Numbered from the stretch's first letter, positions 2,694 through 54,351 are shown. The stretch: 54,351 bases of DNA from a virus (IMGVR_UViG_3300045988_082110:1-54351); one strand, 5' to 3'. Notes: generated from the letters alone by a model not told the origin. A program made the numbers and translations.

Positions 2694-4838
2694 CTATATG
2701 ATGGTTGCTGCCGAAACAGAAACCTTTCTTCTCATTACTCTTGCCTGAATGGAAATCATCTTTGGCATTTCCATTTCGTTGAAACAGATGTGGAGTCCGA
2801 TGGCTCTGGTCATGAGCAAATCATCGTGCTTTCCGTCTGCTGCCTCGTATATGGTTCCGTTCTTCTCGTAGGTTAGATATTCATCTAAGCATCTATCGTC
2901 TCGCTCTACATAGAGTTGTTCACGGATAACCTGAACCAATACTGAGATAACCATTGGCTTGGTTGCCACGTTGGTATGGAATCCGTACTTCACTGGAACC
3001 TTATTCTTGATGTCTGATTCGCTCTGTTTGCGTGCATAGAGATTGTCGTATACATCTTTAATTTGATTCAGGATGAACTCAGACTGGTCACCACCTTCCA
3101 AGATGTGCTCCTTGTCTTTCGTCTCCAAGGTATTGGATTCAATCACCAACAAAGCATCGTTGTAGTATTTGGCTATCTGAGCCGCCTTCCATGCCAGTAA
3201 GTCCATATCAATATGCCCATACCATTGGGCTACCACATACGGCTTGCCACCTTCCATCATCCAATAGCGGTCGAAGACACAGATAACAGACCAGTCGGCA
3301 TTCTTGCTACGTCCACCAATATCCACTACGACCAGATAGCGGTTTATCACCTTGCAATCATCAAAGGTCTCGGGCTTGCTCCATATCCACAACTGACCCT
3401 GCTTGTCTTCACAGAACCGAACATTCTGCATACACTTCTTGCCCTTGTAACCATCACCATAAACATCACCGATGAACTTAGGTGCTCGGCATCCCTTGCG
3501 GAACTTGTCAACCTTGTCTTCGGCAAACACCTTGGCTCCTGAATGCTTGAATGCTTCAATATCATCGGTAGGGTAGCCAGCAGCCATATCGGCATGGTCG
3601 GTGAACTTCCTGCGCTCGGCAATATACCAGTTAATGGCTTCGAGTGGAGCACCCAGTGTCCATAACTTCCAAAGATAGGTACATGGCTCCTCTCGGTCGG
3701 ACATCGTGTTGGTATTGTTGCGGTTCTCGTATAACCATTTAGCGAACTCTACCTTCTGTTTCTTGCTTTCAAATTCCAGATGATACATATCGTATATCTC
3801 GTACCAAGGCACAAAGAATGGTTCAAACTGAGATTCGCCCTTGACTGCTGCAAGCCACTCCTTGTGGAAGAAGTTGCCAGTACCATTGGCGGTTGATTCA
3901 TAGGCAATCATCGTGTATGGTCGATACAAGATACCATTGGTAGCATTCTGTACCACCTCCTCAGGAGATTTACCATCCGTCTTTTTCCACAAACCAACCT
4001 CGGAAAGGTGAACCAAGTTGTAGTCTTCACCATTGGCTGACAACGGTCGTTCCATGGAACCCACCTTAATCTTGCAGAATCGCTGAGGAACCTTCTTTAC
4101 ATTACCTGATGCTCCCACTCCAACAAACTTCGGTTCGTTCTCAGAGAACGCTTCTCCCATTTCGTAGAGGAACTTGGTAGGGAAGTTTTTCAGAGCTTCC
4201 TCGAACATACCTCGAATGGTCTCTGCTGTGTCCTTGACCTGAGCCACGATGAGCGAGTTGAGTCCCTTCTGCCACATGAGTTGCAGCCAGAGAAAGTACA
4301 TCTGAATGACCGTAGAACCTCCCCATTGTCGGGCTTTCAGCAGGATGAGACGGATAGGGCGATTTTTCTTTCTTCGCTCCTCCAGCCACCTGAGCAGTCT
4401 GCGCTGCGGTCTTCTGAGCACAAAACGGAAGGGGAGACCTCCACCTTTCGGTTTGATATAGATGAATGTGGCAAAGAAGAAGAAAGGGTCGTGTTTCATC
4501 CTGATGCGAGTGAACTGCTCTACCAGTTGTTCTATTTCCTCTTCTAGGTTGTATGGCTCGTCTATATCCTTGTGCAGTTCCTCGATTACTGCCTTGCAAC
4601 TACCAAACTCGATGAGCATCTTGACGAGCGGAATCTTCTTCATGGAAACTGGAAGCTGCTGTCTCTGAATTGGGAAATCAGGAAGGAAGAGCAGGAATCG
4701 CTTATCTCCACAACCTTCACCCTTGATAGGATTGAATGGTGTGTTGATTTCCTTGATTCGTTTCTCGTTCTCTTTCAGGATGCCAAGCACATGTTTATCT
4801 ACAGCATCAGTCAGTTTGGCGGTTACTTGTCTTGGCAT
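2694..4838 (-). CDS. terL: Terminase large subunit
   Basis: Walker A-like KARQWGGST. The C-terminal nuclease region has acidic motifs (VVVDIGGRS, KHDDLLMTRAIGLH). I moved the start to MPRQVTAK (ATG 4838) because the upstream 72 nt overlap the rhomboid ORF. Confidence 0.88.
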   Translation of the reverse strand: MPRQVTAKLTDAVDKHVLGILKENEKRIKEINTPFNPIKGEGCGDKRFLLFLPDFPIQRQQLPVSMKKIPLVKMLIEFGSCKAVIEELHKDIDEPYNLEEEIEQLVEQFTRIRMKHDPFFFFATFIYIKPKGGGLPFRFVLRRPQRRLLRWLEERRKKNRPIRLILLKARQWGGSTVIQMYFLWLQLMWQKGLNSLIVAQVKDTAETIRGMFEEALKNFPTKFLYEMGEAFSENEPKFVGVGASGNVKKVPQRFCKIKVGSMERPLSANGEDYNLVHLSEVGLWKKTDGKSPEEVVQNATNGILYRPYTMIAYESTANGTGNFFHKEWLAAVKGESQFEPFFVPWYEIYDMYHLEFESKKQKVEFAKWLYENRNNTNTMSDREEPCTYLWKLWTLGAPLEAINWYIAERRKFTDHADMAAGYPTDDIEAFKHSGAKVFAEDKVDKFRKGCRAPKFIGDVYGDGYKGKKCMQNVRFCEDKQGQLWIWSKPETFDDCKVINRYLVVVDIGGRSKNADWSVICVFDRYWMMEGGKPYVVAQWYGHIDMDLLAWKAAQIAKYYNDALLVIESNTLETKDKEHILEGGDQSEFILNQIKDVYDNLYARKQSESDIKNKVPVKYGFHTNVATKPMVISVLVQVIREQLYVERDDRCLDEYLTYEKNGTIYEAADGKHDDLLMTRAIGLHICFNEMEMPKMISIQARVMRRKVSVSAATII

Positions 4839-5302
4839 AGCGGTGCATTTAGATAACCCCACAACAGACCAAGTACATAGCAATAGATGTGGACTCCAAC
4901 TGCCATGCAAGGGAAGAAGATTCCAACACAGATATATAGGAGAATGGTGAGATTGTATCTTACCTTATTCTCCACGTATGGGGCGATAAAGCCCATGTAA
5001 GCATAGATAAAGCCGCTAAGACCGATGATTGGAACGGATGAGGTGAAGGGATAGCTGATGGCTATGAGATAGAATGCCACCAAGTGACCGATGCCACAAG
5101 GGATGGCTCGGTAGCATTGATGGAAAACATAAAGGTTGATGGCAGCATGAAAGATATTCTGATGAAAGAAAGGGTAACTTAGTCGGTTCTGAATAGAACA
5201 ATCGTCAAAAAGACCCATGCCATCATATCCAAGAAAAGTGATACACATTATTATAATGTACCCAGCATAAAGCGCAATCTTCTCTTTCGTCTCTCGTAGC
5301 AT
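4823..5302 (-). CDS. Rhomboid-family intramembrane serine protease (159 aa, minimal 6-TM core)
   Basis: Six hydrophobic helices. The TM2 motif is FHAAINL (H52..N56). The TM4 motif GLSGFIYAYMG (S96) resembles GlpG GLSGVVYALMG. The TM6 motif is VHIYCYVLG (H138). Confidence 0.75.
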   Translation of the reverse strand: MLRETKEKIALYAGYIIIMCITFLGYDGMGLFDDCSIQNRLSYPFFHQNIFHAAINLYVFHQCYRAIPCGIGHLVAFYLIAISYPFTSSVPIIGLSGFIYAYMGFIAPYVENKVRYNLTILLYICVGIFFPCMAVGVHIYCYVLGLLWGYLNAPLCQDK

Positions 5303-5706
5303 CTTTGCTTCTCCTCCTTTCTCACCCTGCTAAGAATTACGTGTATGCTTTGAGGAGTCAAATAGAAACTGGGTGCTTTTTCAGCACATACACGTTTGAT
5401 AATATCCATATTACTGAGATATGGCTCATTACTCTTATGAATCTGGAATCGTCTGAAAATCTCCTGATACATTTCCTTTCGGGTAGGTATCATGTTATCA
5501 AGAGGTTTTCCTTTCAGTAAGTCCAATATGACTATATAAGCACGGTCTTCTGAAACCCAAAATCTTCTGCTCGGAGATTGGGCTAGCTTTTCCTCAATCT
5601 CTGAGAGTCTGATATTGTCTCTTACATTAATAATTTCTTTGTAAGCCCTCAATAAATCAGCATCACGTTCCTCTATAAAATAGCATCGTGAATCCTTATA
5701 TTTCAT
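5251..5706 (-). CDS. Hypothetical DNA-binding/packaging-associated protein (possible small terminase)
   Basis: ORF track. It is the first gene of the operon that contains TerL and has a basic C-terminus. The function is inferred from position only. Confidence 0.45.
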   Translation of the reverse strand: MKYKDSRCYFIEERDADLLRAYKEIINVRDNIRLSEIEEKLAQSPSRRFWVSEDRAYIVILDLLKGKPLDNMIPTRKEMYQEIFRRFQIHKSNEPYLSNMDIIKRVCAEKAPSFYLTPQSIHVILSRVRKEEKQRCYERRKRRLRFMLGTL

Positions 5707-5717
5707 ATCTGACCCTG

Positions 5718-5725
5718 CAAATATA
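5718..5725 (-). promoter_or_regulatory. -7 box TATATTTG for the packaging operon
   Basis: Minus strand reads TATATTTG, 11 nt upstream of ATG 5706. Confidence 0.5.
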
Positions 5726-5766
5726 CAAAAAAGTATTGAATAAGTCGCATCCGATTAGACTAAATT

Positions 5767-5807
5767 AACGGATAAAAGATGAAAATCGGAAAAAAGCATT
5801 AATTTTG
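5767..5807 (+). promoter_or_regulatory. Late-type promoter: AACGGATAA-N24-TAATTTTG
   Basis: The 9-mer is at 5767-5775, followed by exactly 24 nt and a -7 box at 5800-5807. The ATG at 5839 follows. Confidence 0.65.
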
Positions 5808-5838
5808 GGCATTGATTTATAAATATACACATATATAT

Positions 5839-6654
5839 ATGGACGATAATACAAATATTGAGCAGAATGCTGGTGCTGCAAAACAGCAAGATACCAAGAC
5901 CAAGAGAGACTTGGCTTTGGAGCGTTTGAAGACCCGCCATCCTGATACGGAGTATGCGGATGATGAAGCTATGTATGGAGCCATCAATGATGATTATGAT
6001 GCCGACCAGAAGGCTTTGCAGGGTTATAAGGATAATGAGAAGGCGATGGGTGACTGGTTGGGCAGTGACCCTGAGGCAGCTACCTTCCTACAAGCAATGA
6101 AGGCAGGTAGGAGTCCTTACGCTGAGTTGATTCGTACACATGGCGAGGATGCCATTGACTACTACTCTGACCCTGACAATGCGGATGAGATTGCATCGGC
6201 TCAGTCGGAGTTCTTGCAGAATGCTGCCAACGGCAAGAAATTGCAGGAGGAGTATGACAAGAACATGCCTTCCAGCTATGAGGTGTTCGACAAGTTGGAG
6301 GAGAAGTATGGCGAGGAAGCTGTGAACGATGCCATCGACCAGTGTTTTCAGACAATGCGCAATGTGGTGACTGGCAAGTTTACTGAGGAAATGATTACTG
6401 CTTTCATCAAGGCAAAGAACCATGATACTGATGTGGCTGATGCTGCCCATGAGGGTGAAGTTCGTGGCAAGAACAGCAAGCACGTCAAGAACCTTGAACT
6501 GAGAAAGAAGGGCGATGGTACTGCTGACCTTGATTCAGCCAATGCAGAGACCAAGCAGACGGATAACCAGCCTGACCTTGGTGCTGTGGGCAGGGTATCA
6601 CGAAGGGGTAACGTCTGGGAGCGTGGCAACGAGAAGAGAACACACATTCGATAA
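5839..6654 (+). CDS. Scaffold-like protein (acidic, helical, about 271 aa)
   Basis: The track ORF 5812..6654 starts at TTG; the first ATG is 5839 (MDDNTNIEQ). It lies just upstream of the capsid gene. It is Asp/Glu/Ala-rich and has the C-terminal motif NVWERGNEKRT. Confidence 0.6.
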   Translation: MDDNTNIEQNAGAAKQQDTKTKRDLALERLKTRHPDTEYADDEAMYGAINDDYDADQKALQGYKDNEKAMGDWLGSDPEAATFLQAMKAGRSPYAELIRTHGEDAIDYYSDPDNADEIASAQSEFLQNAANGKKLQEEYDKNMPSSYEVFDKLEEKYGEEAVNDAIDQCFQTMRNVVTGKFTEEMITAFIKAKNHDTDVADAAHEGEVRGKNSKHVKNLELRKKGDGTADLDSANAETKQTDNQPDLGAVGRVSRRGNVWERGNEKRTHIR

Positions 6655-6707: not shown

Positions 6708-8249
6708 ATGAAGAAAAGTACATTTAATCGGCTGTTTTCCATCTTTATTATGGTAATGGCAGTTATTTTTGGAGTGAATGGTCAGGTTATCATGGCTGAG
6801 GCGGCAAATCTGCCTGATGGCGGTAGTACCGAGAGTGGTTCTGCTGATGAGGCTGGTGGTGCTCCTGTTGCTGGTAAGGCTGGCAATGGCGGTGCTGCTC
6901 GACAGAGTGAAGGTATCAAGAGCGAGACTCAGGGACGTGAGCATTTTAACGAGAATGGCACGGAGTATTACCTGAACGACATTGATGAGAAGATTACCAA
7001 GATTCGCCCGATGGCTACTCCAGTTGACCAGATTTCACGCTATGCGACAACCAAGTCTGCCAACTCGTTTGTAGTTGAGTATTGGAGTATCGGTACACGC
7101 CCTATCAAGACAACCGTGAAGGAAAAAACGGAGGAGAGTACTGGTACATCTATGGTATTGAAGGTAGAAGACCCTACCATGTTTACGCTGGATGATACCA
7201 TCCGAGTGGTAGGTGTGAATGCGATTACCAACTATAAGGGTGTTGAATATTCTAACATTAATGATGCTCCTACTCCTGATTTGGAACTCTGCGTTTGCGG
7301 TAAAGACACAGAAGGTTATCCGATTGTGTATGCTGTAAATGGTAAGTTGGTCAATAAGCAGGCTATCGGTATTCCAGCCTTGCAGAAGGGTCAGAAGCTC
7401 ATCCGTATGGCTAAGAGTTGTGGTGAAATGGACGTTCAGACGGGTCGTTTCAACAACCTTCCTTCTAATGAGGTTCAGTATTGTCAGAACTTCATGATTC
7501 AGGTCGAGCAGACCACTTTCGACAAGATAGCTGCTAAGCGAGTGGATTGGGATTTCTCTGACATCGAGGAGGATAGCATCTATGATATGCGTCTTGCTAT
7601 GGAAGGTACTTATCTCTTCGGTGATATGGCTTGCATCAAGCACGAAATCAAGGATGGTTCTGCCCAGTGGTTTACCAAGGGTATCTGGTGGATGGCTGGT
7701 AAGGATATTGAGGTAGGTCATGTTGCTACTGCTGATGATATTAAGAAGGGCTACAACAAGAATGAGCGAGTGATTACCGACTTGGAGTTGGTTGACATTT
7801 CCAAAGATTTGTTTGTTGGTACTGGTATCGGCAACAAGCGCAAGGTAATTATCGCTGGTTCTGACTTCGTGAGCGCATTCAGTAAGATTGATTCCGACAA
7901 GTTCCGTTTGAAGGACACCGTTGATATTTGGAAGTTGAAGTTCAAGAGTTGGGAGACTGACTTCGGTGAGGTGCTGATGATTCACTCTGAGTTGTTTGAC
8001 CTCTTCGGTATGAGTGACTGTGGCTTTGCCCTTGACCCTGAGTTCTTGGTTAAGCGAGTACACTTGTCTTGGACACGAAACGTTCTCGATTTGAAGGCGG
8101 CTGGCATCCGTAACACCGATGCAGTAGTTATTCAGGAGGTAGCTTGTCTGTACTTGAAGTACCCTAAGGCACATGCTCGTATGCGCCTTGCTGCGGTTCC
8201 TGCTACAGATGGCACTTCTGGTACAGAGGGAACCAAGGCTAATGCCTAA
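6708..8249 (+). CDS. Major capsid protein (HK97-fold type), with an unusual N-terminal hydrophobic plus Gly/Ala-rich extension
   Basis: It sits between the scaffold-like and portal genes. IDEKITKIRPMATPVDQISRY and the C-terminal AVVIQEVACLYLKYPKAHARMRL are typical of capsid proteins. It is followed by a strong terminator. An alternative start is ATG 6792 (MAEAANLP). Confidence 0.75.
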   Translation: MKKSTFNRLFSIFIMVMAVIFGVNGQVIMAEAANLPDGGSTESGSADEAGGAPVAGKAGNGGAARQSEGIKSETQGREHFNENGTEYYLNDIDEKITKIRPMATPVDQISRYATTKSANSFVVEYWSIGTRPIKTTVKEKTEESTGTSMVLKVEDPTMFTLDDTIRVVGVNAITNYKGVEYSNINDAPTPDLELCVCGKDTEGYPIVYAVNGKLVNKQAIGIPALQKGQKLIRMAKSCGEMDVQTGRFNNLPSNEVQYCQNFMIQVEQTTFDKIAAKRVDWDFSDIEEDSIYDMRLAMEGTYLFGDMACIKHEIKDGSAQWFTKGIWWMAGKDIEVGHVATADDIKKGYNKNERVITDLELVDISKDLFVGTGIGNKRKVIIAGSDFVSAFSKIDSDKFRLKDTVDIWKLKFKSWETDFGEVLMIHSELFDLFGMSDCGFALDPEFLVKRVHLSWTRNVLDLKAAGIRNTDAVVIQEVACLYLKYPKAHARMRLAAVPATDGTSGTEGTKANA

Positions 8250-8345: not shown

Positions 8346-8753
8346 ATGTTTAATAAATATCAAGCTGGTACTGATTTGGCATTCAGCGTTATGGTAGGTA
8401 GCGAGCGGATGCGCATTAACTTTGAGGGTAAGAGCACGGGCAGTAGTGTCTATATGACAAGAGACCCAAAGGTACAGAAGGCTATCGAGTCTCATTATTG
8501 GTTCAACGACAAGTTCTTCTTGGTGGAGAGTATTGACGAGAAGAAGGAAACTGCGGAAGCCAAGAAGAAGGCTGCTGCCAAGGCAAAGAAGAAGGTGGCT
8601 GACGAGAAGAAGACTCATGTCGTGACAGACGTTGAGGATGCCAAGGACTATCTGGCTGAGACCTTCGGTGTGAGCCGTTCCAAGATGAAGACCAAGGAAG
8701 ACATCTTGGCGATTGCTAAAGAAAAGGGTGTTGAACTAGAAGGTTTAGAGTAA
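8346..8753 (+). CDS. Hypothetical head-associated protein with Lys/Ala-rich linker and HeH/SAP-like C-terminus
   Basis: ORF track. Contains KKKAAAKAKKK and a C-terminal DAKDYLAETFGVSRSKMKTKEDILAIAKEKGVEL. Confidence 0.55.
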   Translation: MFNKYQAGTDLAFSVMVGSERMRINFEGKSTGSSVYMTRDPKVQKAIESHYWFNDKFFLVESIDEKKETAEAKKKAAAKAKKKVADEKKTHVVTDVEDAKDYLAETFGVSRSKMKTKEDILAIAKEKGVELEGLE

Positions 8754-9409
8754 TGGTAGAATATGCTGTATCTGATTTAGTGAAAGAGGTGAAGGTGCTC
8801 TTGGATAGAAACCAAGAGTCTGCTGGCTTGCTGGCTCCTGACGATTCTGATACACTCTCGCAAGCAGAACTTATTGAGAGTAAAATCGTAGATGCAGCAA
8901 GAATCATTCTTTCGGATGCTCCTGAGGATATGGTGGAAGGTACTGCGTGTACGAATGCTGTAACGTGGACGGATAGCAACGGCTATTACGTGGGTAAGAT
9001 GGTTTTGCCTACCGATATGCTGAGAATCCTTTCTGTGAAGGCAGAAGGCTGGAACCGTCCTGCCGAAATCATTTCAGAGAGTGATGATGCCTACAAGTAT
9101 CAGAACTGCAAATATGGAGTTAGGGGAAATCCTGAGCGACCGATTGCGGCTATCGTGCATACGGCTAACGGCAAGAGTATCGAACTATATACTAGTAAAA
9201 AGCAGGATGCTACATTGGCATTCATCTATGTTCAGGTTCCATCTATCACTACCGAACAGAAAATCAGTCTGCCTTCCGTCCTGAAAGATGCCATCTTATA
9301 CATGGCTGGCTATCTCACTTGTAACAGCCTTGGCGATACCGATACTGCAAGCGGATTCCTTGGAGTGGCTAGAAAGTTGGCACATATTGTTGAACCTACA
9401 ACATCATAA
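8753..9409 (+). CDS. Hypothetical virion protein (possible head completion/connector)
   Basis: ORF track. Its start overlaps the previous stop and it lies between the capsid and portal genes. Confidence 0.55.
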   Translation: MVEYAVSDLVKEVKVLLDRNQESAGLLAPDDSDTLSQAELIESKIVDAARIILSDAPEDMVEGTACTNAVTWTDSNGYYVGKMVLPTDMLRILSVKAEGWNRPAEIISESDDAYKYQNCKYGVRGNPERPIAAIVHTANGKSIELYTSKKQDATLAFIYVQVPSITTEQKISLPSVLKDAILYMAGYLTCNSLGDTDTASGFLGVARKLAHIVEPTTS

Positions 9410-9412
9410 ATT

Positions 9413-11449
9413 ATGGCAAAGAAGAAAGAAGAAACCAAACTGCTATCGTTGAGTAGGGTACTTGACAAGGAAGAACTGGATAGCGTGAAGGCATCCAAGA
9501 ACCGATTTGACAAGCCATACGAGCGTGCCTTCTCTATATTGCTAGAGGCTCAACGATACTACAACAACATGGATAACTTCCGAAAGCGAAGACTGAGAAA
9601 CAAGCGATACTGCTATGGAGACCAGTGGGGCGATACCATTGAGTTCAAAAGCAAGTGTGGCTTTACCAAGCGTATCAGGGAGGAAGACTATATTCGTGAG
9701 CAGGGTAGCGAACCATTGAAGAACAACCTTATCCGTAGATTGGTGAAGAATGTGCTGGGTGTGTATCGCTCTCAGAGCAAGGAACCAACATGTAACGCTA
9801 GAGATAAGGATGAAAAGCGATATGGTGAGACCATGAGCGTGGTGCTGCAATGTAACCGACAACTGAACCGAGAGACGGAACTGGATGCCCGAACCATGGA
9901 AGAGTTCCTGATAAGCGGTGCTGCTATCTATAAGAAAAAGTATGGATGGCGAAGAGGTAGGTTGGATTGCTGGACGGACTACGTAAACCCGAACAATTTC
10001 TTCATAGACAACAATATGATGGATTTCCGTGGTTGGGACGTGAGTTGCTTGGGTGAGGTGCATGACATTAGCATCGGCAACGTGCTGAGAGAGTTTGCCA
10101 AGTCTCCTGCTGAGGCTCGTAAGTTGAAGGAGATATACCGGTTGGCGGCTAACCGAGATTTCGTGATTGCAGACTGCACCCAGCGATTCGGTGAGTTCGA
10201 CCCTAAGACCATCGACTTTATGAATCCTGCCAACCCTTCGCTCTGTCGAGTGATTGAGGTTTGGCGAAAGGAGAGTAAGCCAAGATACCGATGCCACGAC
10301 TACAACAATGGCGATGATTTCAAGATTGATATTGAGGATAAGGCTGATATTGTAGATGCAGAGAACAGAGACAGAATCAGGCGAGGTATGGCTGCTGGTA
10401 TGCTGGAAGAGGATATTCCTCTGATTGATGCCGAGTGGTTTATGGATGATTACTGGCATTTCTACTACCTTTCTCCTTTCGGTGATATTCTGAGAGAAGG
10501 CGAGACCCCTTATGCTCATGGTGAGCATCCGTACTGCTTTAAGTTCTATCCGTTTATTGATGGCGAGATTCACAGCTTCGTGGAAGACGTGATTGACCAG
10601 CAGAGATACGTGAACCGACTTATTACGATGTATGACTTCATTATGAGGGCGAGTGCCAAGGGTGTGCTGCTCTGTCCTGAGGATTGTCTGCCTGATGATA
10701 TGAGTTGGGATGATTTCTGCGATGAGTGGAGTAGATTCAATGGTGTGGTGAGATACAAGCCAAACAAGAGCGGTCAGGTTCCTCAGCAAGTAGCGAATAA
10801 CTCTACGAACATCGGTATCGGTGATTTGCTCAGCTATCAGTTGAAGTTCTTCGAGGATATATCGGGAGTGAATGGTGCGCTGCAAGGAAAACCAGGACTA
10901 TCAGGTACGAGCGGTTCGCTTTATGCTCAGCAGACACAGAATGCTACCATGTCGCTGCTTGATATTTTGGAGACTTTCAGCCAGTTTATCATTGATGGTG
11001 CTTACAAGACCGTGAAGAATATGCAGCAGTACTACGATGTGGCTCGCAACTTCAATATTGTTGGTAGGGCAGGACAGATTGTACACTACGACCCTAAGAA
11101 GATTAGAGACGTGGAGTTTGACATCAACATCACGGAAAGTACAGCTACTCCTGTATACAGGCAGATGGCGAATGAGTTCCTTATGACCTTGTGGCAGAAT
11201 CAGGCTATCACGCTGGAGCAGTTGCTGCAAGTAGGAGATTTCCCATTTGGAGAGGAGTTGCTGCAATCGGTTGCATCCAACCAGCAAGCCATTCAGAATG
11301 GTGAGACTCCACAAGGATTCTCTCCTCAGCTTCAAGCCCAAGTTGCTCAGGCATCACAGAGCAATCCGAAGGCTCAGGCTATGTTGCAGCAGATGATGAG
11401 CGGTCAGGGGGTGAGTCCTGACGGGCAGAACCCACCGCTTGCTGCTTAG
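9413..11449 (+). CDS. Portal protein
   Basis: 678 aa. The N-terminal YYNNMDNFRKRRLRNKRYCYGDQWGD motif is typical of portals. The C-terminus is Gln-rich. Confidence 0.8.
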   Translation: MAKKKEETKLLSLSRVLDKEELDSVKASKNRFDKPYERAFSILLEAQRYYNNMDNFRKRRLRNKRYCYGDQWGDTIEFKSKCGFTKRIREEDYIREQGSEPLKNNLIRRLVKNVLGVYRSQSKEPTCNARDKDEKRYGETMSVVLQCNRQLNRETELDARTMEEFLISGAAIYKKKYGWRRGRLDCWTDYVNPNNFFIDNNMMDFRGWDVSCLGEVHDISIGNVLREFAKSPAEARKLKEIYRLAANRDFVIADCTQRFGEFDPKTIDFMNPANPSLCRVIEVWRKESKPRYRCHDYNNGDDFKIDIEDKADIVDAENRDRIRRGMAAGMLEEDIPLIDAEWFMDDYWHFYYLSPFGDILREGETPYAHGEHPYCFKFYPFIDGEIHSFVEDVIDQQRYVNRLITMYDFIMRASAKGVLLCPEDCLPDDMSWDDFCDEWSRFNGVVRYKPNKSGQVPQQVANNSTNIGIGDLLSYQLKFFEDISGVNGALQGKPGLSGTSGSLYAQQTQNATMSLLDILETFSQFIIDGAYKTVKNMQQYYDVARNFNIVGRAGQIVHYDPKKIRDVEFDINITESTATPVYRQMANEFLMTLWQNQAITLEQLLQVGDFPFGEELLQSVASNQQAIQNGETPQGFSPQLQAQVAQASQSNPKAQAMLQQMMSGQGVSPDGQNPPLAA

Positions 11450-12388: not shown

Positions 12389-12652
12389 ATGACTCCAAAC
12401 GTGCGTGAAGGATTGCAATATGGTACAGCCATTGGAATGGTAGTGAGCGGCATCGTCCTCGCCTTCCTATCATTCTTTCTGAACAACTATATTATTTCGG
12501 ATGGTGTGCTCTGGTACATCAGCCAAGCGTTGGTTTACTCTGGAGCAATATTCGGGGTGAACATTTATTTCAAGACAAAACTAGGCAACTTTGAGAGCAA
12601 GGTGAAGGATGAACTCGCAAGTATGCTGAAACAAGTGAAGGAGGGCAAGTAA
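12389..12652 (+). CDS. Holin (87 aa, two TM helices)
   Basis: Two hydrophobic helices and a charged C-terminus, immediately upstream of the endolysin. Confidence 0.65.
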   Translation: MTPNVREGLQYGTAIGMVVSGIVLAFLSFFLNNYIISDGVLWYISQALVYSGAIFGVNIYFKTKLGNFESKVKDELASMLKQVKEGK

Positions 12653-12653
12653 T

Positions 12654-13202
12654 ATGAAGGTAACAAGAGAACAGATTTTGGAGATTATGCCGAATGCCAA
12701 GGATAAGGTGGATGCGTTCCTACCTTATATCAATGGCTATGCAGAGGTGTTCCATATTGATACCCCTAAGCGTATGGCTCACTTCTTGGCTCAGATTGCA
12801 CATGAGAGTGGTGAACTGAGATATACCAAGGAACTCGGCAACAAGTACTACTTCCACAGGTATGATGTGGGCAAGTTGAAAAATATGCTCGGCAACCTGA
12901 AAGATGGCGATGGCTACAAGTATCGTGGCAGGGGCTTGATTCAGATTACTGGCAGAGCCAACTATCAGGCTTATCAGAACAGCAAATATTGTACTGGTGA
13001 CATCATGGAGAGCCCTCAGTTGCTGGAGCTTCCGCTAGGAGCAACGAAGAGTGCTATGTGGTGGTGGTGGAAACATGACCTGAACAAACTTGCTGATAGT
13101 GATAGTTTCCTTGCTATTACCAAAACAATCAATGGTGGAACCAACGGTTTGGAATCAAGACGGAAGTTCCTTACAAGAGCAAAGAAGGTCTTTAATGTTT
13201 AG
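12654..13202 (+). CDS. Endolysin, glycoside hydrolase family 19 (chitinase-like)
   Basis: AHFLAQIAHESGELRYTKE, YRGRGLIQITGRANYQAY and INGGTNGLESRRKF are GH19 lysozyme signatures. Confidence 0.85.
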   Translation: MKVTREQILEIMPNAKDKVDAFLPYINGYAEVFHIDTPKRMAHFLAQIAHESGELRYTKELGNKYYFHRYDVGKLKNMLGNLKDGDGYKYRGRGLIQITGRANYQAYQNSKYCTGDIMESPQLLELPLGATKSAMWWWWKHDLNKLADSDSFLAITKTINGGTNGLESRRKFLTRAKKVFNV

Positions 13203-13205
13203 CCT

Positions 13206-13739
13206 ATGAAAGTAAAATGGTACGATACTGATTTTTGGCAAGTGGCACTCTACGTGATTGGCATCTTGCTGGTGGCATTTTTTCTGTCGGGATGCAAGTC
13301 TTCGTTCCACACTATGAAACCAGAAGTTTCACACTATGAAACTGATAGTTTCACGTCTGAAACAAAACAGAACGTCCTGAGGTGGGATTCTATCGTTAAG
13401 CGTGACAGCATCTATGTAATGGATAGTGTGGCAACAAGGAAAGAGGGAGATACCATCTTCGTAGAGCGATGGCATTGGGAATATATCTATGATTTCTTCA
13501 AACTGGAGAAGATGAACTTGGAGAATAAGCAGGATATGGATTTCCGATTTATCGCAAGGTCAGATACCATCAGGGTTCCCTATCCAGTTGAAAAACAACT
13601 CTCCAAGTGGGAGCAGTTTCAGTTGAAGTATGCAGTATGGTCTTTTGGAGCACTCTGCATGCTGTTAATCGTATTAGGTTATAAACTCTATAAAAAGATA
13701 AAGAATGGCAAATTTCACATTAACAATCACGAAAAGTGA
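13206..13739 (+). CDS. Unimolecular spanin candidate (N-terminal lipoprotein signal plus C-terminal TM)
   Basis: Lipobox FLSGC (Cys30) and a C-terminal TM, YAVWSFGALCMLLIVLGYKLY. It lies directly after the endolysin. Confidence 0.6.
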   Translation: MKVKWYDTDFWQVALYVIGILLVAFFLSGCKSSFHTMKPEVSHYETDSFTSETKQNVLRWDSIVKRDSIYVMDSVATRKEGDTIFVERWHWEYIYDFFKLEKMNLENKQDMDFRFIARSDTIRVPYPVEKQLSKWEQFQLKYAVWSFGALCMLLIVLGYKLYKKIKNGKFHINNHEK

Positions 13740-32192: not shown

Positions 32193-32271
32193 TGGGGCGC
32201 AAGGTGGGACTCGAACCCACGACCTCGAAGGCTCATAAACCTTCATACTCTACCAACTGAGTTACTTGCGC
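32193..32271 (-). tRNA. tRNA with a non-canonical anticodon arm (20 nt instead of 17); identity undetermined
   Basis: Acceptor stem GCGCAAG/CTTGCGC, U8, D arm ACTC-AGTTGGTA-GAGT, variable loop AGGTC, T arm GTGGG-TTCGAGT-CCCAC, discriminator C, encoded CCA. The anticodon arm is TGAAGG-TTTATGAG-CCTTCG. Confidence 0.8.
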
Positions 32272-37700: not shown

Positions 37701-38366
37701 ATGATAGGTGCATTAATAGGTGCTGGGCTTGGTCTTGCAAGCAGTATTGCTGGCGGTATAGCTAACCGCAAGGTGAGAAAAAAGCAGGAGCAGATGATTG
37801 CTCAGCAGCAGAGAGAAAATCAGGCATGGTATGATAGAAAGTATAATGAAGACCCTACCAAGCGTGCTGATACGGTTCGATTGCTCACACAGATGCAGGA
37901 GCAGATTAAGAACAGAAACAAGGCAGCTAAGGGTAGACAAGCGGTGATGGGTGGTACGGAAGATTCCACTACTGCGGTAAAGGAGGCGAACAACAAGACT
38001 CTTGCTGATACTACCTCACAGATTGTGGCTGCTAATGATGCCCGAAAGGATAACATTGAGCAGCAGTATATGAACAGAAAGAACCAGTTGCAGAACCAGC
38101 AGATGAGTATTGACGCTGAGAAGGCTGCTGATACTGCCAATGCGGTTGCTGGTGTGGCTGGTACTGCTGCCAATATCGCTGCATCGCTTGATAGTGGTGC
38201 TGGTGGTGCGAAGAAGGCACCGAATATGAATGTGACTCAGGAGCAGTTGAATGGTATCGCTAAGGACTCAAATGATGTTCTTGGCTTGAAGGCTAAGGCT
38301 ACGGCTCTTCCTTCTGAGGGTGACTTGAATAGCCTTGGGGCTAAACTTCAAAAGATTAAAGCATAA
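37701..38366 (+). CDS. Internal virion/DNA-pilot-like protein (Gly-rich hydrophobic N-terminus, Gln-rich coiled coil)
   Basis: MIGALIGAGLGLASSIAGGIANRK followed by Q/N/A-rich helices. This composition resembles ejection or pilot proteins. Confidence 0.5.
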   Translation: MIGALIGAGLGLASSIAGGIANRKVRKKQEQMIAQQQRENQAWYDRKYNEDPTKRADTVRLLTQMQEQIKNRNKAAKGRQAVMGGTEDSTTAVKEANNKTLADTTSQIVAANDARKDNIEQQYMNRKNQLQNQQMSIDAEKAADTANAVAGVAGTAANIAASLDSGAGGAKKAPNMNVTQEQLNGIAKDSNDVLGLKAKATALPSEGDLNSLGAKLQKIKA

Positions 38367-39466: not shown

Positions 39467-42400
39467 ATGGCTACAAGAAAAGAGATTGCACAGAATCAAA
39501 AGATTCTATATGATGATGCAGTTGCAAACAATATGTTTCAGGCTGCTGTACCTAGCTTTAAGGAGTTTCAGAAGCGACTCGAAGGTCAGGGGTATCAGAA
39601 AATGGTGTATGATAACTACAAAAAGCACAATGTGAGAGGAAAGGGATTTAATAATCTCAATGAGTTCCGTGGTGCTTTTGGTGGTTCTTTCTATGCTGAT
39701 GAAAATAAAATTGGTGTATCGGCTGGGGCAGCAGCTATCTCGGCTAGTGCTCAGCAGACAAAGAACAATGCTGGCAGATACAATAGACTGAAACAACGCA
39801 AGCAGAAACAGCAGAAGGATTTCGGTCGTGTGAACTTGGGTACACATCAGACTCCTTATGGTGGTGATGCAAACAATGTGGTGAAGGATGATTTTGCTTA
39901 CAATCCTGAGACTGGCAAGACTGGCGCATACGTTACCTCGGACAATGAGAATGCTTATTCTCTTCCTGAAGCTGAGCAGATGCAAGCTATTCTTGACAAG
40001 CAGAACGATGCCTATCAGGTAGCGGTAGATACTGGCGAGATTCCATCTGCATTTGATGTTCGTGACAAGAATGGTAACTATGACTTGCAGGAGAACATCG
40101 GCAAGAATGGAACCTACCTTACTGAGGAGGGTGCTCAAAAGCAGTTTGACAAGAAACTGGCTGATGCCTATGCTCGAAAGAAGGAGATTGAGGCTCTTAT
40201 CGCTGAGGATAATCGGCAACACGGAAATCCTTTGCTCTCTTATGGTGCTAGTATCGGTGCAAGTAACGGAAGAACTGCTGAGCAGAGTGACTATAGAAAT
40301 AAGTTGGCAACCTCTCTTTCTCTGGTTAAGCAGCAGATTGGTGCGCTGGAAGCGGTGAAACAATATCCTACAAGTAGCTGGGGTGAGGATGCCTTGAAGG
40401 CTCTTGACAATACTGCATTTACTGCAAAAACATGGGATTTCGGTCTTACTGACTTCGCTACTATGGGGCAGATGGAACGTATCAAGACAAAGATGGATAA
40501 CAATATTCCTCTCTCAGGTTCTGATAAGATGCTCTTGAAGAGTAAACTGGGTGCGGATGCTGCTGCGGCTCTTGAAGACGAGAAGATGGGTAACGTCTAT
40601 CGTTGGACGAAGATTGCAGGGCAGAGTCTCCCATTTATGGCTGACTTTTTCTTGACTGGCGGTTATGGTGGTATTACTAAGGGCATCAGTCGTGGAGCCT
40701 TGAAGATTGCTGCTAAGCGTGGCATGGGCAAGGTGAGTGCTGCGGTCTTGAAGAATACTGGTATTGTGATTGGTGATATTATCGGCTCGTATGCGATGGC
40801 TGGAACTGAGCAAGCGTTGAAGACTGGTGCTGACATCATGCAGCGACATCTTGGTAATCTGTATCAGGATGAGAAGGGTGATTATAAGTTTGGTACTTTC
40901 GATGAGAATGGAAATCTTCTGCATGAGGGTGGTGAGTCTATTGGTACTGCTCTCTATAAGGGTATGACCTCTGCTATGGTAGAGAACTATACTGAAAAAC
41001 TCTTCGGTCACAACTATGGTATCAAGAAGGGTGCTGTCAACTTTATGGAGAAACATGGTATGAATGCTTCTGCTGAGTTCTTCAAGAATATCGGCAAGAG
41101 TGGATGGTATACCAATTCCAAGAAGTGGATGGAGAAGTTCGGTATCAATGGTTTCGCTGAGGAAGTTATGGAGGAGGAAATTGGTATTCCTCTTCATGCC
41201 TTGCTGGATGGTGAAGGTAAGGTTAGCGACCTTCTTGATGCTAAGCAGCAACTCGACATCATCGGTGGTATGGCTATCTCGGTCGGTTCTATGTATGCGA
41301 TGGGTGCTGGCTCCCGACCAGTAAAAGGTATCTACAATCGTGCTCAGTATTACCGATTCCGCAACAAGGTGAACGTGGCTGATAGTGATGCTCAGAACCT
41401 TATGGGCGATAACTGGGCAGACATCAAGGATAAGATAGACAACGCAACCAACGAGCAGATGGGTGGCGTGCTGGCTGATATTCTCAGACAGAGAGATACC
41501 ATGACCAAGGAGCAGATTAATGCTGCTGTTAACTATGGTGTCAACCTGATGAAGATGCGTGGCTACAATATTGCCAAGACTGCTGAAATGAATGCCAAGG
41601 AGATAACCAATGAGCCTACAACACCTGAGGAGCAGCATCAGGCAGATATTGACAACGCTTATTCTGAGGGGCATGATGCTGATGATGCAGACAAGCATGA
41701 TATTCAGATTCAGCAGGAAGACCAGATGAAGACTCTTGCAGCAGCATTGGGTATCTCTGAGCAGCAGCTATCTGCCATGAGTGACGAGGAACTGGAATCC
41801 ATGACTGGGCAGGATGATAAACTTGACCAAGCTATCTATGACTACCAGTTGTCTTCTGCCCGATACCAAGGTGTGGTTGATGATGCACAAGACAAGGTTG
41901 ACCTTGCTGCTCATCAGGCAGAGCAGAGAGTGGATATGTACACAGACCAGAGTCGTAGTTCTGTCCGTAACGCTACTATCAAAGCATTAGGTGGCTTGGA
42001 AGACTATGGTGTTTATATTATCAGTGGTAATATTGCTACTCATGATGATGGCTCCATTGATGTAAGCAATAGCGATGGTATGATTCTATACTATGACCCG
42101 ACAACGAATAGTGTAGAACATGCTGATGCGTTGATGTTCGCTGAACTGGGTGAAGAACTCCCTGCTGATGATGTGAAGGCTCAGGCAGTAGCTGATGCAA
42201 AAGAGAATGCTATCAAGGAAGTGGCTGGCATCATTGATGGAACCGTTGAAATTGGCTCCCAGTTCAATGTGACTGATACTGATGGTACTGAACATACCTA
42301 TGAGGTGTTGGCTGACTATGGTGATGGTACTGCTGCTATCTCTATAGATGGTAACGTGGTGGAGAATCCTTATTCGCTTGCAGACTTGCAGCAGATGAAA

Positions 42401-45400
42401 GACTTGGAAGACCAGAAGAGACTGGAAGCTGCCAAGGCTGAGCGTGAGCAGATGGAAAAAGAACGTGCTGCCCAGCAGAATCAGGAGACAGAAGAGACTC
42501 AACCTTCGTTTGACTTCAATCAGATTCTCAATGATAATGGTAACGTGGTGCTCGTTGATGTGCTCGACAAGGATGGTAATACCAAATATCCTGACTCTAG
42601 ATTGTTCCTCATTCGTGATGCTGGTGCCAAGGCTAAGGTAGTTGAGTTGAAGAGTGATGGTACTATTGTTCCTCATGCTGTGAACAAAGAAGATGTGGCA
42701 ACTATCTCTTCTATGTCGCTCGATGAATACAAACAAGCTATGCCTGAATCCTCAACAATAGAGGATAATAGTGGAGAAGAATCTGATGAGGATTCTCAGT
42801 TGGCAAATCTCGGTTTGCCTAAAGGTAGCGAGATATGGATGAGTGGCGATGGATTCGGAAGACCAAAGGAAAACACTCTATCAAAAGTTGTTGGTATTGA
42901 TGAGCAGGGCAGTATAATCCTTGAAGATAAGGATGGTAAAAAGTGGTCTGCATCATTTGATTATATCAACAACCATCGTGAGCTTCCACCTTTGGATGAG
43001 AATACCAATATCGTTAATGAGGAGAATAATCAATCTGAATCAAATGCTGAGGAGAACACTCCTGCTCCTGAGCAGACTCCTGCTATTACTCTTGAAGATG
43101 GAACCATTGTTCCTATGCTGGAGGATGGCAATCCTGACTTCTCGAAGCTGACTGCCGCACAGACTGCTGAGTTGTATGATACTCAGTTCGGTGAGGATGC
43201 AGATAGTATCGTATCTGGATATGTGTCTGACGCAAAGAAGGCACTCGACAAGGCTAGCAACATGACCGTGAAAGGTAAGACTTTCGTGGAACAGAAGGCT
43301 GCCAAGGATGCCAAGGAGAAGGCTATTGCTGATGCTCAGGCGGTTTATGATTCTGCTATCGCTATTCGTGATGCTTACAACGAGCGACAACTGGCTAAGG
43401 TGGAAGATACTGCTGAGGGTAGAAAGGAACTCATTGAGAAGGCAAGAAGAAAGTTCGCTCGCTTGAAGAGTGCTGTTAAGGATGATGCTGAGGCTGTATC
43501 ACAACTCTACCGAGAAACTATCGGTTCTCTCCTTCATCGTCTGTATGATAGTACTGGTATTGACGTGACTGATACAACTCCGCTTACTGCTGAGGAGTAT
43601 GTGGCTAGCAACCTCGGTGCTCACTCTCTCAACTTAGAGGGAACAGAGACAAGCAAGGGTGTTAAGCAGGAGACTGGATTGAGCAGAGAAGACTTTGCCA
43701 AGACTCAGTTGCTCGCTGCTGATGGCAAGGGAACTACTATTGATGCGCTCGTTCACAGCTTGTGGGAGAATCGTCCATCCAACCTTGAATCACTCGACAC
43801 TCAGGATATTCGTAACGCACTTATCGGTGTACTCAATAGCGGTTTTAAGGCATCGGAAGCAAGGAATTTTGTTGAAAATATTCGCATTGCTCAGGCAGAG
43901 AACATACTTGAAGAGCAGAAACGTGCTCAGGAGAATGCAGCCTATGCTGAGCAGCACAAGGCTGAGCCAGAGGCCGAGTTGAAGGCGAAGTCGGATGAAA
44001 AGGCTGAGTTGAAGGCGAAGTCTGAGGCGAAGTTGGATAATGAATCGTCTAATGAATCTAATGATTTGTCTAATGAAACGGATAATGAGAAGATAAATGA
44101 CAATATAAATGATAACATAAATGTTCCTGAGGATGCTACTGATGAGAATCCTTTAGGCGCACAGCGTGATGAATCTGACCTTCCTTTCTCTGCTAAGGAG
44201 AATGGTATGCAGCAGACAACTGCCGTGCGTGCTGCTGACGTGGAGAAGAATAAGGTGAATGATATGAAGGTTGTTGACAATATCGTAGGGCAGAAGACTC
44301 GCAAGGCTTTCGAGAGACTGGCTAAGATGATGGGTGCTAACATTCAATGGCAGTACTCTGACAAGTTGGGCAACGGCTGGATTCAGGAGACCAAGGATGC
44401 CGATGGCAACGTTCATCGTACCATCTTCATCACTCTTGACTCTTCTATCACGGAAGGTGCTCAATTTATCTTCGGTCACGAAATGACCCACCAAATCAAG
44501 AACCTGAACCCTGCTGCATACAATGAGTTGACTCAGCTTGTGCTTGATACCTATGGCTCTGATGCCTTCGACAAGGCGGTGGATGAGACCATGCAGAGAT
44601 ATTCTGATGCTGGATTCTCTGGACGTGCTAGAGATTACTATGCTGAGGAGGTTGTTGCTGATTCGGTAGGTGAAATGATTCGTGACTTGAACCTTGCTCA
44701 CACTCTAGCCATGAAGATGTCTCATCCTCTGCTCGCTGCTATCCATGAGATATTGCAGAAGATTAAGTTGGCATTCTTTGGTACTGAGTATAGCGATGTG
44801 ACCAAGAACATCATCCGCTCTATCGAACAAGCCTACGTGAAGACTGCCAATGGTCAGGTAACGAATTCTGAAACTGGCGAAGATGTTGCCTTCTCTCTCC
44901 GTCAGAAACCTGAACCTAAGAAGAAGGGTGTCGGCTACAAGGTGTTCGTGCTAAAGGATGGCAAACTCTATCCACCAATGGTAGCGAACCCTGATGGCGC
45001 TGCTACTCCAGTTGGTGTATGGCTCGATGCTGATGCGGCTCCTATTGCAGGAGAAAGCAAGACTGGCAGACCTCAGGTTAAGCAGGGCGGCAAGGGAACA
45101 CAAGGCGGTAGCGGTAAGCTAGCCTATAGACCAGGCTGGCATCTTGGTGTAGTGCCTTATGCTATTCAGTTCAATCGCAAGGATGCTGAGGGAAACAAGA
45201 CTCTCTTCCCTAAGAACTTCGTCTTCGCTGAGGTGGAGTATGCTGCTGATGTTGATTATCAGGAGGAAGCTCGCCAAGAGGGTATCAATCCATCGGGCAA
45301 GTATCAGCATTCATTGGCTGGTTTGAAACATCTGCCTACTGATGGATATTATATGTATCGTACCAACCCGAACCCTGAGACTGACCCTTGGGTGATTACT

Positions 45401-53449: not shown

Positions 53450-54351
53450 TATGAATTTCTAATGTCATTGTTCCATGATTGCATTCTAAATCTACCAGTT
53501 CCTGCATCGTTTTCACCATTAATATATGGTGCTTTTGTCATAGAACAATTATTTACAACAAATGTGCTATACTTCAAACTATCACCTAACTGAGATACAA
53601 TTATAGTTCCGTCTTTAAAATAAGCATCCTTTATCATTACAGAATTACAGAAGTTGCTTCCAAAATTTGACTGAGGATTATGATAGCTAATAACTTGGTC
53701 TAAGTTACTCTTATTGATGTCAATGTTCTTGGACTCATAATAACCACCGATGATTTGAATATCGCCATGTTCACCAAGTCCACCTCCAATACACTGACAC
53801 GTTTTAAAGTATGTCTTATTTGTGTTGTCAAGAACCATCCTGCAATTATCGTACAGATGTTTATAGCATCCCTTACCATTACATTCATCATGGACAACAT
53901 ATCTTGTGTTAGTACATTCAAACTCTCCACCATGTATTTCAAAGTCACTTCCTCCAATATCAGTTGTTTCAATAGCATTCAAAGGAGAAAATCTTTCTAA
54001 GCTTGCATTAAGCGTACCTGTGTAATTTGCTATTATTTTTGCACCTTGTGAGAAAAAGATTCGTACACCTCTTCCGATTTTAGGACCATAATATCCTGCG
54101 GCACTGTCTGAATCAATCTTTGCAATGGTCAACTCCGCAACAATATCATAAGTACCGGCATCTACATATAAGTCAACATTTCTTTTTGCTACAGCAGCAG
54201 CTAAGCCATCAGTAAACTTGGTGAACTCTCGATTTGCTCCAACGTACATTTTTGCTCTGCTTTCTATTATGTCAACATCAGATTTGAGTGTATCAACATC
54301 AGATTTGAGTGTATCAACATCAGATTTGAGTGTATCAACATCAGATTTGAG
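53449..54351 (-). CDS. Tail fibre, C-terminal part (possible beta-helix receptor-binding or depolymerase domain)
   Basis: The track ORF 53449..54249 stays open upstream to 54351 (LKSDVDT x3, LKSDVDIIESRAK-MYVGANREF). It is in frame with the 1..1556 ORF once the 77-bp overlap is collapsed (1556+826 nt = 794 codons). The beta-helix idea is a weak by-eye impression (VDLYVDAGTYD, repeated G/N-rich strands). Confidence 0.7.
   Translation of the reverse strand, partial: LKSDVDTLKSDVDTLKSDVDTLKSDVDIIESRAKMYVGANREFTKFTDGLAAAVAKRNVDLYVDAGTYDIVAELTIAKIDSDSAAGYYGPKIGRGVRIFFSQGAKIIANYTGTLNASLERFSPLNAIETTDIGGSDFEIHGGEFECTNTRYVVHDECNGKGCYKHLYDNCRMVLDNTNKTYFKTCQCIGGGLGEHGDIQIIGGYYESKNIDINKSNLDQVISYHNPQSNFGSNFCNSVMIKDAYFKDGTIIVSQLGDSLKYSTFVVNNCSMTKAPYINGENDAGTGRFRMQSWNNDIRNS
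54275..54351. repeat. Second copy of the 77-bp terminal identity (assembly overlap of a circular or terminally redundant genome)
   Basis: Identical to 1-77. It is preceded by unique sequence (tatgtca), and the copy at the window start is followed by unique sequence (agaggttt). Confidence 0.95.

Follow-up and report, generated by a model that had tools for sequence, protein, structure and literature searches.

We analysed IMGVR_UViG_3300045988_082110, a viral DNA sequence taken over its whole length of 54,351 nucleotides (nt; hereafter, the window), and found that an open reading frame (ORF) on its minus strand (4823-5302; ATG start, 159 amino acids (aa)) encodes a minimal, six-helix member of the rhomboid family of intramembrane serine proteases. 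The gene is almost certainly a fixed part of the late head/packaging block in a large family of temperate P22/SU10-like Bacteroidales phages. The protein forms a new, compact subfamily within a known family and is already labelled in databases; what is new here is a terminase-locked rhomboid that co-varies with a membrane-tagged capsid protein, a combination that is undescribed as a system. On the basis of this co-variation, we tentatively propose that the rhomboid acts on the precursor of the major capsid protein.

A compact rhomboid in the packaging operon

The ORF is a conserved, real gene and not a chance reading frame. Its 159-aa frame is kept in 80 of 80 close relatives from IMG/VR, and the ratio of non-synonymous to synonymous substitution rates (dN/dS) across these relatives, taken over the part outside the overlaps with neighbouring genes, is 0.12. 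A 97%-identical protein is the representative of the closest cluster, which holds 3702 member sequences, and an exhaustive family profile search recovered 996 clusters at 50% identity, 129 of them below 1e-30, nearly all of 150-180 aa. Together, the retained frame, the low dN/dS, the 996 matching clusters and the six-helix AlphaFold model described below place the ORF beyond chance.

An earlier note on this DNA had reported a 159-aa ORF with three motifs and with overlaps of 52 nt and 16 nt with its neighbours, and all of these are present as described on the minus strand. The motifs in the translation are FHAAINL (H52/N56), GLSGFIYAYMG (S96, codon 5015-5017) and VHIYCYVLG (H138, codon 4889-4891). 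The longer overlap is with an upstream 151-aa ORF (5251-5706), and the shorter is with the gene for the large terminase subunit (TerL; 2694-4838, minus strand), given a TerL start at the ATG at 4838; an alternative TerL start is the TTG at 4910. A purine-rich stretch, GAAAGGAGGAG, lies 5' of the rhomboid ATG. Given the overlapping reading frames, the rhomboid may be co-translated with the packaging genes.

Assignment to the rhomboid family (MEROPS S54), as first suggested from the motifs, was borne out at the level of the family profile and of the predicted fold. Taken singly, the window protein gave weak matches to Pfam PF01694 (E-value 0.14; 12.8 bits, below the gathering cut-off of 22.6 bits) and to a single entry in PDB, the GlpG rhomboid of Haemophilus influenzae (E 0.047). 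With a 37-sequence family profile, 17 of 17 PDB matches were GlpG rhomboids (best E 1.1e-7), making GlpG the only PDB family matched by profile, and a broader 69-sequence profile repeated this outcome. The profile alignment places H52/N56, G-L-S96-G and H138 onto the catalytic and oxyanion residues of GlpG. Moreover, 27 of the 37 close family members individually match Pfam Rhomboid at E<=0.01, and a precomputed PF01694 match exists for most relatives at greater distance, so the sub-threshold score of the window protein reflects a limit of sensitivity and is not counter-evidence. A scan of PHROGs v4 returned no family for the window rhomboid or for six of its relatives. Membership of the rhombosortases (TIGR03902) was considered and rejected: the window protein had no match, and two relatives scored 24.9 bits (lineage P0073) and 17.3 bits (BF1-TP2 gp59) against a cut-off of 84.

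The AlphaFold (AF2) model used here, built from a deeper alignment, has a predicted local distance difference test (pLDDT) of 90.4 and a predicted template modelling (TM) score of 0.86; a run on a shallow alignment gave a pLDDT of only 49.6. Its helices span residues 2-24, 50-66, 71-82, 96-109, 113-129 and 135-152, together with a short helix in the L1 loop. S96 opens helix 4 and H138 lies near the start of helix 6, at the positions of S201 and H254 in Escherichia coli GlpG, in agreement with the earlier assignment of the catalytic pair. A Foldseek search of PDB with this model returned 20 GlpG and two iRhom1 entries as its top 22 matches (probability 1.00, TM 0.59-0.69), after which no match exceeded a probability of 0.14. 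Models of 'Podoviridae sp.' proteins in BFVD also match the window rhomboid, with TM of 0.70-0.75.

Rhomboid signature residues are R40, H47, H52, N56, G94-L-S96-G97, Y100 and M133-A-x-G136-x-H138. The GxSG motif (G94-L-S96-G97) and H138 are invariant in the family alignments and in 91 of 91 loci, as are the three residues of the helix-2 motif HxxxxHxxxN (H47, H52 and N56) in the family, which align with H145, H150 and N154 of GlpG. In the L1 'WR' motif, R40 is invariant or nearly so and the preceding Trp is variable; helix 6 reads H138-x-x-C141-x-x-x-G145, in which a small residue takes the place of the first Gly of GxxxG. Across nine members that are 22-30% identical to a reference member, no column varies so little as to be invariant except M1, R, H, H, N, G, S and H, and apart from M1 these are precisely the signature residues of rhomboids. 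Lys and Arg residues number seven on the N-terminus, the 2-3 loop, the 4-5 loop and the C-terminus versus one on the remaining loops, and from this distribution both termini are predicted to be cytoplasmic and the Ser96-His138 site to open to the periplasm, as in GlpG. Overall, the ORF very probably encodes a catalytically competent, stripped-down rhomboid with six predicted membrane helices; its L1 loop is very short and it carries no additional domain.

GlpG (H. influenzae and E. coli; PDB 2nr9 and 2ic8) is also the best fold match and the closest point of reference. The two proteins share the six-helix core with a Ser-His dyad on helices 4 and 6, the motifs GLSGxxYAxMG and MAxGxH, the helix-2 HxxxxHxxxN and the Arg of the L1 'WR'. 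They differ in that the window protein is only ~20% identical to GlpG, has 159 aa compared with a core of ~180 aa, has a much shorter L1 and lacks the cytoplasmic N-terminal domain. Furthermore, the Trp of 'WR' is not conserved, the GxxxG of helix 6 has become C141xxxG145, and the gene belongs to a phage, where it has a fixed place within a head/packaging operon.

A conserved gene trio in Bacteroidales phages

The order small ORF, rhomboid, TerL, with overlapping frames, is kept in every lineage examined, which bears out the expectation that the ORF would be conserved in place in related phages. The cultured temperate Bacteroides phages BS-TP4, BKO1-TP3 and BF1-TP2 have the same trio in the same order with the scaffold/capsid operon divergent from it. 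The rhomboids of these cultured phages either share 30-35% identity with the window protein or have diverged too far for tblastn. The trio recurs in the distant metagenomic lineages P0073, P0100, P0094, P0230, P0283, P0275, P0288 and P0284. The rhomboid block is divergent from the scaffold/capsid operon in all lineages examined but one (P0271), and both genes, rhomboid and capsid, are present in each of the 90 untruncated loci.

Hosts of this phage family include Prevotella/Segatella, Bacteroides and other Bacteroidales. The closest prophages sit in Segatella copri and in uncultured Prevotella (capsid protein 86% identical), and the host of the window phage is therefore probably Prevotella/Segatella. 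Several related loci (L125, L126, L129, L146, L159 and others) come from metagenome-assembled genomes labelled Bacillota, Clostridia, Staphylococcus or Oscillospiraceae, and such non-Bacteroidales labels are probably binning contamination. A megablast search of the rhomboid region against isolated phages gave no match, and MW202692, which has the next-closest TerL among isolates, was too distant to serve as a control.

Homologues in GenBank and UniProt already carry names such as 'rhomboid domain-containing protein', 'rhomboid family intramembrane serine protease', 'MAG TPA: Rhomboid family' and 'GlpG-like protein [Caudoviricetes/Podoviridae sp.]', so that, as far as annotation goes, the identification has been made before. 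These labels are automatic only, including those of BS-TP4 gp8 and BF1-TP2 gp59, which are true homologues and keep the same order of genes. Our literature search found no paper discussing the rhomboid of this phage family, nor intramembrane proteases in capsid maturation, and the paper describing BS-TP4 and its cultured relatives, in which BS-TP4 was reported in 31% of 930 viromes, makes no mention of the gene. Other labels in these records are erroneous or inconsistent. For example, TerL is labelled 'tail spike protein' in three GenBank records (L001, L002 and L007; PQ571277, PQ571269 and PQ571263), the BKO1-TP3 rhomboid (gp50) is mislabelled 'glycoside hydrolase', and a 73-aa ORF of the cultured relatives is named 'YajC' in one entry but 'PHD finger protein 19' in a second.

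TerL itself is identified by a match to phrog_2 ('terminase large subunit', 1.1e-17) and by tblastn matches to annotated terminases. The upstream 151-aa ORF occupies the usual position of a small terminase gene and had been suggested as such in the earlier note, but it matches only a PHROG of unknown function (phrog_27246, 1e-35). No small-terminase match was found in Pfam, NCBIfam or PDB, including with a 6-sequence profile, and the suggested role is a guess from gene position. A counterpart of this ORF precedes and overlaps the rhomboid gene in all lineages, by ~40-50 nt where measured. In one database protein, P0191 (292 aa), the upstream ORF (45% identical over residues 1-141) and the rhomboid (45% identical) are joined in frame, either as a natural fusion or perhaps through a frameshift error. 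This case is a hint that the 151-aa protein may act together with the rhomboid at the cytoplasmic face. We rejected a programmed -1 frameshift joining the two genes, as the overlap contains no slippery heptamer and the frame relation differs in one locus (L095).

The fusion and the constant overlap of the two genes would also suit a different role, in which the rhomboid is mainly a membrane anchor or pseudoprotease that tethers the 151-aa protein, and thereby the terminase or procapsid, to the inner membrane, with catalysis secondary. We regard this as highly improbable. All catalytic and oxyanion residues are invariant at ~25% identity, unlike in pseudoproteases of the iRhom/derlin type, which makes a purely structural role unlikely; in addition, the fusion is a single case that is possibly a frameshift error, no slippery heptamer is present and the relation of the two frames is not constant.

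A signal-like capsid extension that tracks the rhomboid

The major capsid protein of the window (6708-8249, plus strand; 513 aa) is of the SU10/HK97 type (PF17236 SU10_MCP, 5.8e-26; phrog_26635). The Pfam capsid domain begins at residue 83, and outside the domain model lies a signal-peptide-like N-terminal add-on (6708-6824, plus strand), which is the proposed rhomboid substrate. The add-on consists of MKK, a hydrophobic stretch of ~15-20 residues, the motif G-x-x-[VIL]-[MVFLI]-Ala ending in A30, and then LPD[AG]G (residues 35-39). The last of these is near-invariant and is followed by a Gly/Thr/Asp-rich linker of ~45 residues (capsid residues 1-85 correspond to 6708-6962). A18, in the middle of the helix, and A30, at the end of the segment, are both invariant, and the hydropathy of residues 12-30 is 2.21. 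By hydropathy, the capsid protein is the sole product with such a membrane-like segment among the head- and packaging-operon ORFs that were scanned.

The add-on is translated and under purifying selection. An AT-rich initiation leader sits before M1 of the capsid protein and not before an internal Met, dN/dS over codons 1-30 is 0.26 with conservative substitutions, and the same architecture recurs in ~10 lineages whose capsid cores are 40-60% identical; each of these supports translation and constraint. A start at Met29, which would leave the hydrophobic stretch untranslated, was rejected on account of the leader at M1 and the dN/dS of 0.26, and because several lineages have V, F or L in place of M29. 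A lipoprotein signal was likewise rejected, as no Cys is consistently placed.

We scored the add-on and the rhomboid in 73 prophage loci, which were collected from one-genome-per-species data with the capsid protein as bait. Both features were present together in 63 of the 73 loci and both were missing from four with adequate flanks, while none of the 73 was discordant. The remaining six were uninformative (in five the add-on was present but the upstream DNA was too short to judge, and in one the contig end cut the capsid ORF). Locus L150 was considered as a discordant case and rejected, since its capsid N-terminus is broken by a run of 100 Ns and the add-on is present before the gap. Three of the four loci with neither feature (L158, L159 and L169) form one lineage with the order portal, scaffold, capsid and with different packaging genes; their capsid proteins have cores that are 55-57% identical and start just before the conserved GIATETxGR. 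The capsid start in this lineage lies at about the point where a processed protein would start. The fourth (L148, 1267-6982) was rejected as an independent phage without rhomboid and add-on: it is a decayed prophage in which a remnant of the capsid gene lies beside the host glycine-cleavage genes gcvT and gcvP and an lpdA-like pyridine-nucleotide-disulphide oxidoreductase, and it counts for little as a result.

These patterns bear on the question of what the rhomboid cuts, for which the earlier note had offered several candidates, including a capsid precursor with a hydrophobic N-terminus. That candidate is now the best-supported lead, and processing of the major capsid protein precursor is a possible, still tentative function; the predicted topology, discussed below, weighs against a canonical cut. 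We prefer capsid processing because two very rare features, a rhomboid in the packaging block and a signal-like peptide on the capsid protein, occur and disappear together. In the proposed sequence of events, the add-on would take the capsid precursor to the inner membrane, where the rhomboid would cut it off, either after A30 or at A18 in mid-helix, and the cut would free the mature capsid protein for scaffold-driven assembly. The rhomboid would then stand in for a prohead protease. Consistent with the earlier suggestion that the genome has no conventional prohead protease, no match to a head-maturation protease in PHROG or Pfam was found for the rhomboid ORF or for ~35 other ORFs, in a scan that was not exhaustive. 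The lack of a head-maturation protease is, in any case, normal for P22-like, scaffold-dependent assembly.

Several observations weigh against capsid processing. First, the charges around the hydrophobic stretch are basic before and acidic after it, from which the add-on would be expected to insert N-in/C-out like a Sec signal peptide. Known rhomboid substrates, such as those of GlpG, AarA (TatA) and PARL (PINK1), have their N-terminus on the side of the active site (N-out), so that the chain direction of the add-on is reversed. Second, cleavage at the periplasmic face would strand the capsid domain on the wrong, non-cytoplasmic side, unless that domain were never translocated. Third, the c-region of the add-on, [IMLAC]-x-A, fits host signal peptidase I as well. 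Fourth, only one or two evolutionary events underlie the co-occurrence, which may reflect linkage by descent, because the lineage without the rhomboid also has different packaging genes. Finally, P0271 keeps the trio with a capsid gene that is not adjacent. The full scenario, in which an HK97-fold capsid protein is a membrane-targeted precursor freed by a phage rhomboid, acting on an N-in or translocon-stalled substrate in what would be the first tailed-phage capsid maturation to depend on an intramembrane protease, is correspondingly more doubtful and, in our estimation, unlikely.

Comparison with known systems places the proposed capsid processing between several precedents. In Providencia stuartii, the rhomboid AarA trims the small N-out/C-in protein TatA by a few residues near its N-terminal membrane helix. 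This is the best functional analogue for processing of an N-terminal anchor, although the capsid add-on differs from TatA in being predicted N-in and in forming a whole anchor that needs removal. Rhombosortase with its GlyGly-CTERM tag (TIGR03902) is likewise a minimal rhomboid, comparable in size and devoted to a single class of tagged substrate, and the P0073 protein shows weak similarity to it (E 1.6e-5). In the phage system, however, the tag, if there is one, is N-terminal and has a mirror-image order (basic cluster, helix, small-residue motif), and no C-terminal GlyGly-CTERM tag was noticed on the membrane proteins of the window that were inspected.

Prohead proteases (HK97 gp4, T4 gp21 and ClpP/S49-like enzymes) similarly remove an N-terminal extension of the capsid protein, which is only a proposed role here, and are encoded in the head/packaging block. 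They are soluble enzymes of herpesvirus-assemblin-like or ClpP fold that become packaged within the procapsid, whereas the window rhomboid is an integral membrane serine protease of unrelated fold. The procoat of filamentous phages, which is cleaved by signal peptidase I after a Sec signal peptide, shares with the capsid add-on the n-h-c layout and a small residue at -1. However, procoat is assembled at or through the membrane, while an HK97-fold capsid protein needs to come together with scaffold, portal and terminase in the cytoplasm.

Other candidate substrates and the wider genome

The topology problem would not arise for a phage protein of canonical orientation, chiefly a 221-aa protein (37701-38366, plus strand) whose trimming would mature a virion-internal or ejection protein. 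Its N-terminal membrane helix, MIGALIGAGLGLASSIAGGIA, is rich in Gly, Ala and other small, helix-destabilising residues and is followed by the basic cluster RKVRKK, with a predicted N-out/C-in arrangement; as for AarA-TatA and Spitz, this is the kind of topology that rhomboids are known to cut. The same N-terminal architecture is found in BKO1-TP3 gp57 and BF1-TP2 gp70, each of which, like the 221-aa gene, lies upstream of a giant protein. This glycine-zipper protein (also at 2438-2917 in locus L092 and 2429-2977 in L093) has a Gln-rich coiled region, always precedes a 360-440-aa ORF and the giant protein, and is possibly an ejection or internal virion protein. We nevertheless consider it a rather improbable substrate, given that its gene is ~20 kb from the rhomboid, that glycine-zipper N-termini are common among phage proteins and that the tracking of the rhomboid with the capsid add-on would be left unexplained.

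The giant ORF of the window spans 39467-51157 on the plus strand and encodes 3896 aa. Its counterparts in related phages (4500-6000 aa) contain ddrB-ParB, InPase, helicase, MuF_C, LPD38 and ART-PolyVal domains and are thus 'polyvalent proteins'.

Targets in the host would also be within reach. Late in infection, the rhomboid might cut proteins of the host inner membrane (membrane-anchored defence effectors, proteins of reception or exclusion, or factors of the envelope or of quality control), in which case its position beside TerL would signify only late co-expression. Rhomboid genes occur outside morphogenesis modules in other phages and in giant viruses, as seen among the viral rhomboids of BFVD and in the Stenotrophomonas phages DLP3 and DLP5, whose 175-aa rhomboid lies among accessory, moron-type genes and not in the packaging operon. 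The active site is moreover predicted to be periplasmic, and many single-pass host proteins expose N-out segments there. Host-directed accessory genes are, however, usually mobile and patchy, whereas this rhomboid is invariant in position and presence down to ~25% identity, overlaps both of its neighbours and is missing exactly where the capsid add-on is missing. A host target is therefore improbable in our view.

Control of lysis is a further candidate function and, we believe, a very unlikely one. The lysis cassette (12389-13739, plus strand) comprises a two-helix, holin-like ORF of 87 aa, an endolysin (12654-13202; phrog_181) and a spanin-like protein of 177 aa (13206-13739), the last of which carries a lipobox (FFLSGC) as well as a membrane helix at its C-terminus and looks like a unimolecular spanin. 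The cassette thus encodes membrane proteins, one of them type-I-like (13206-13739), and the rhomboid could act by cutting the holin-like protein or a spanin-like lipoprotein with a C-terminal membrane helix (N-out/C-in). Against this, the lysis genes are several kilobases from the rhomboid in another operon, and those near the rhomboid vary between lineages while the rhomboid is constant.

The remaining head genes are arranged around a short intergenic region (5707-5811) that separates the two divergent late operons. On the minus strand, the order is the 151-aa ORF, the rhomboid, TerL and a 101-aa basic protein. On the plus strand, it is the scaffold-like gene, the capsid gene, a 135-aa protein, the adaptor and the portal, with the holin, endolysin and spanin-like genes further downstream. 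The first gene of the head operon (5812-6654, plus strand) encodes an acidic protein of 271-280 aa (phrog_22323) that is a probable scaffolding protein, since the gene precedes the capsid gene in all relatives. The head-tail adaptor (8753-9409, plus strand) has a weak SU10 adaptor match (PF24175, 1.2e-4) that is below the cut-off, and the P22-like portal protein (9413-11449, plus strand) matches PF16510 (4.9e-35) and phrog_156.

Within the intergenic region, TAnnTTTG occurs at 5718-5725 (minus strand) and 5800-5807 (plus strand), both matching the consensus of Bacteroidetes-type -7 motifs, and these are presumably part of the promoters of the two operons. Across the genome, 64 copies of this motif were found compared with 40.6 expected (0 of 100 shuffles reached 64), many of them just 5' of ORF starts.

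Both ends of the window are identical (1-77 and 54275-54351), which indicates a complete circular phage genome of ~54.27 kb (54,274 bp). The shared 77 nt consist of tandem 21-nt repeats, ACATCAGATTTGAGTGTATCA, which appear to lie inside a long minus-strand ORF running off the start of the window. The genome also carries a tRNA gene (32196-32271, minus strand; Rfam, 53.8 bits), for which ARAGORN reported a four-base anticodon, 'tatg', and assigned no amino acid; this tRNA may have an 8-nt anticodon loop or be of suppressor type.

Rhomboids are universal, yet to our knowledge very few of those in bacteria have a known substrate, and we know of no morphogenesis pathway in tailed phages that uses an intramembrane protease. 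The phage family described here is abundant in the human gut and has a minimal rhomboid among its fixed core genes; its capsid protein bears a membrane-targeting peptide, which is very unusual. The capsid-processing idea is directly testable because the cultured relatives BS-TP4, BKO1-TP3 and BF1-TP2 exist. Even if the substrate proves to be another protein, a phage rhomboid of 159 aa is attractive as a minimal model enzyme. If the link to the capsid is true, it would provide a new membrane route of capsid maturation and a natural, abundant rhomboid substrate, and the accepted rule for the orientation of rhomboid substrates may have to stretch.

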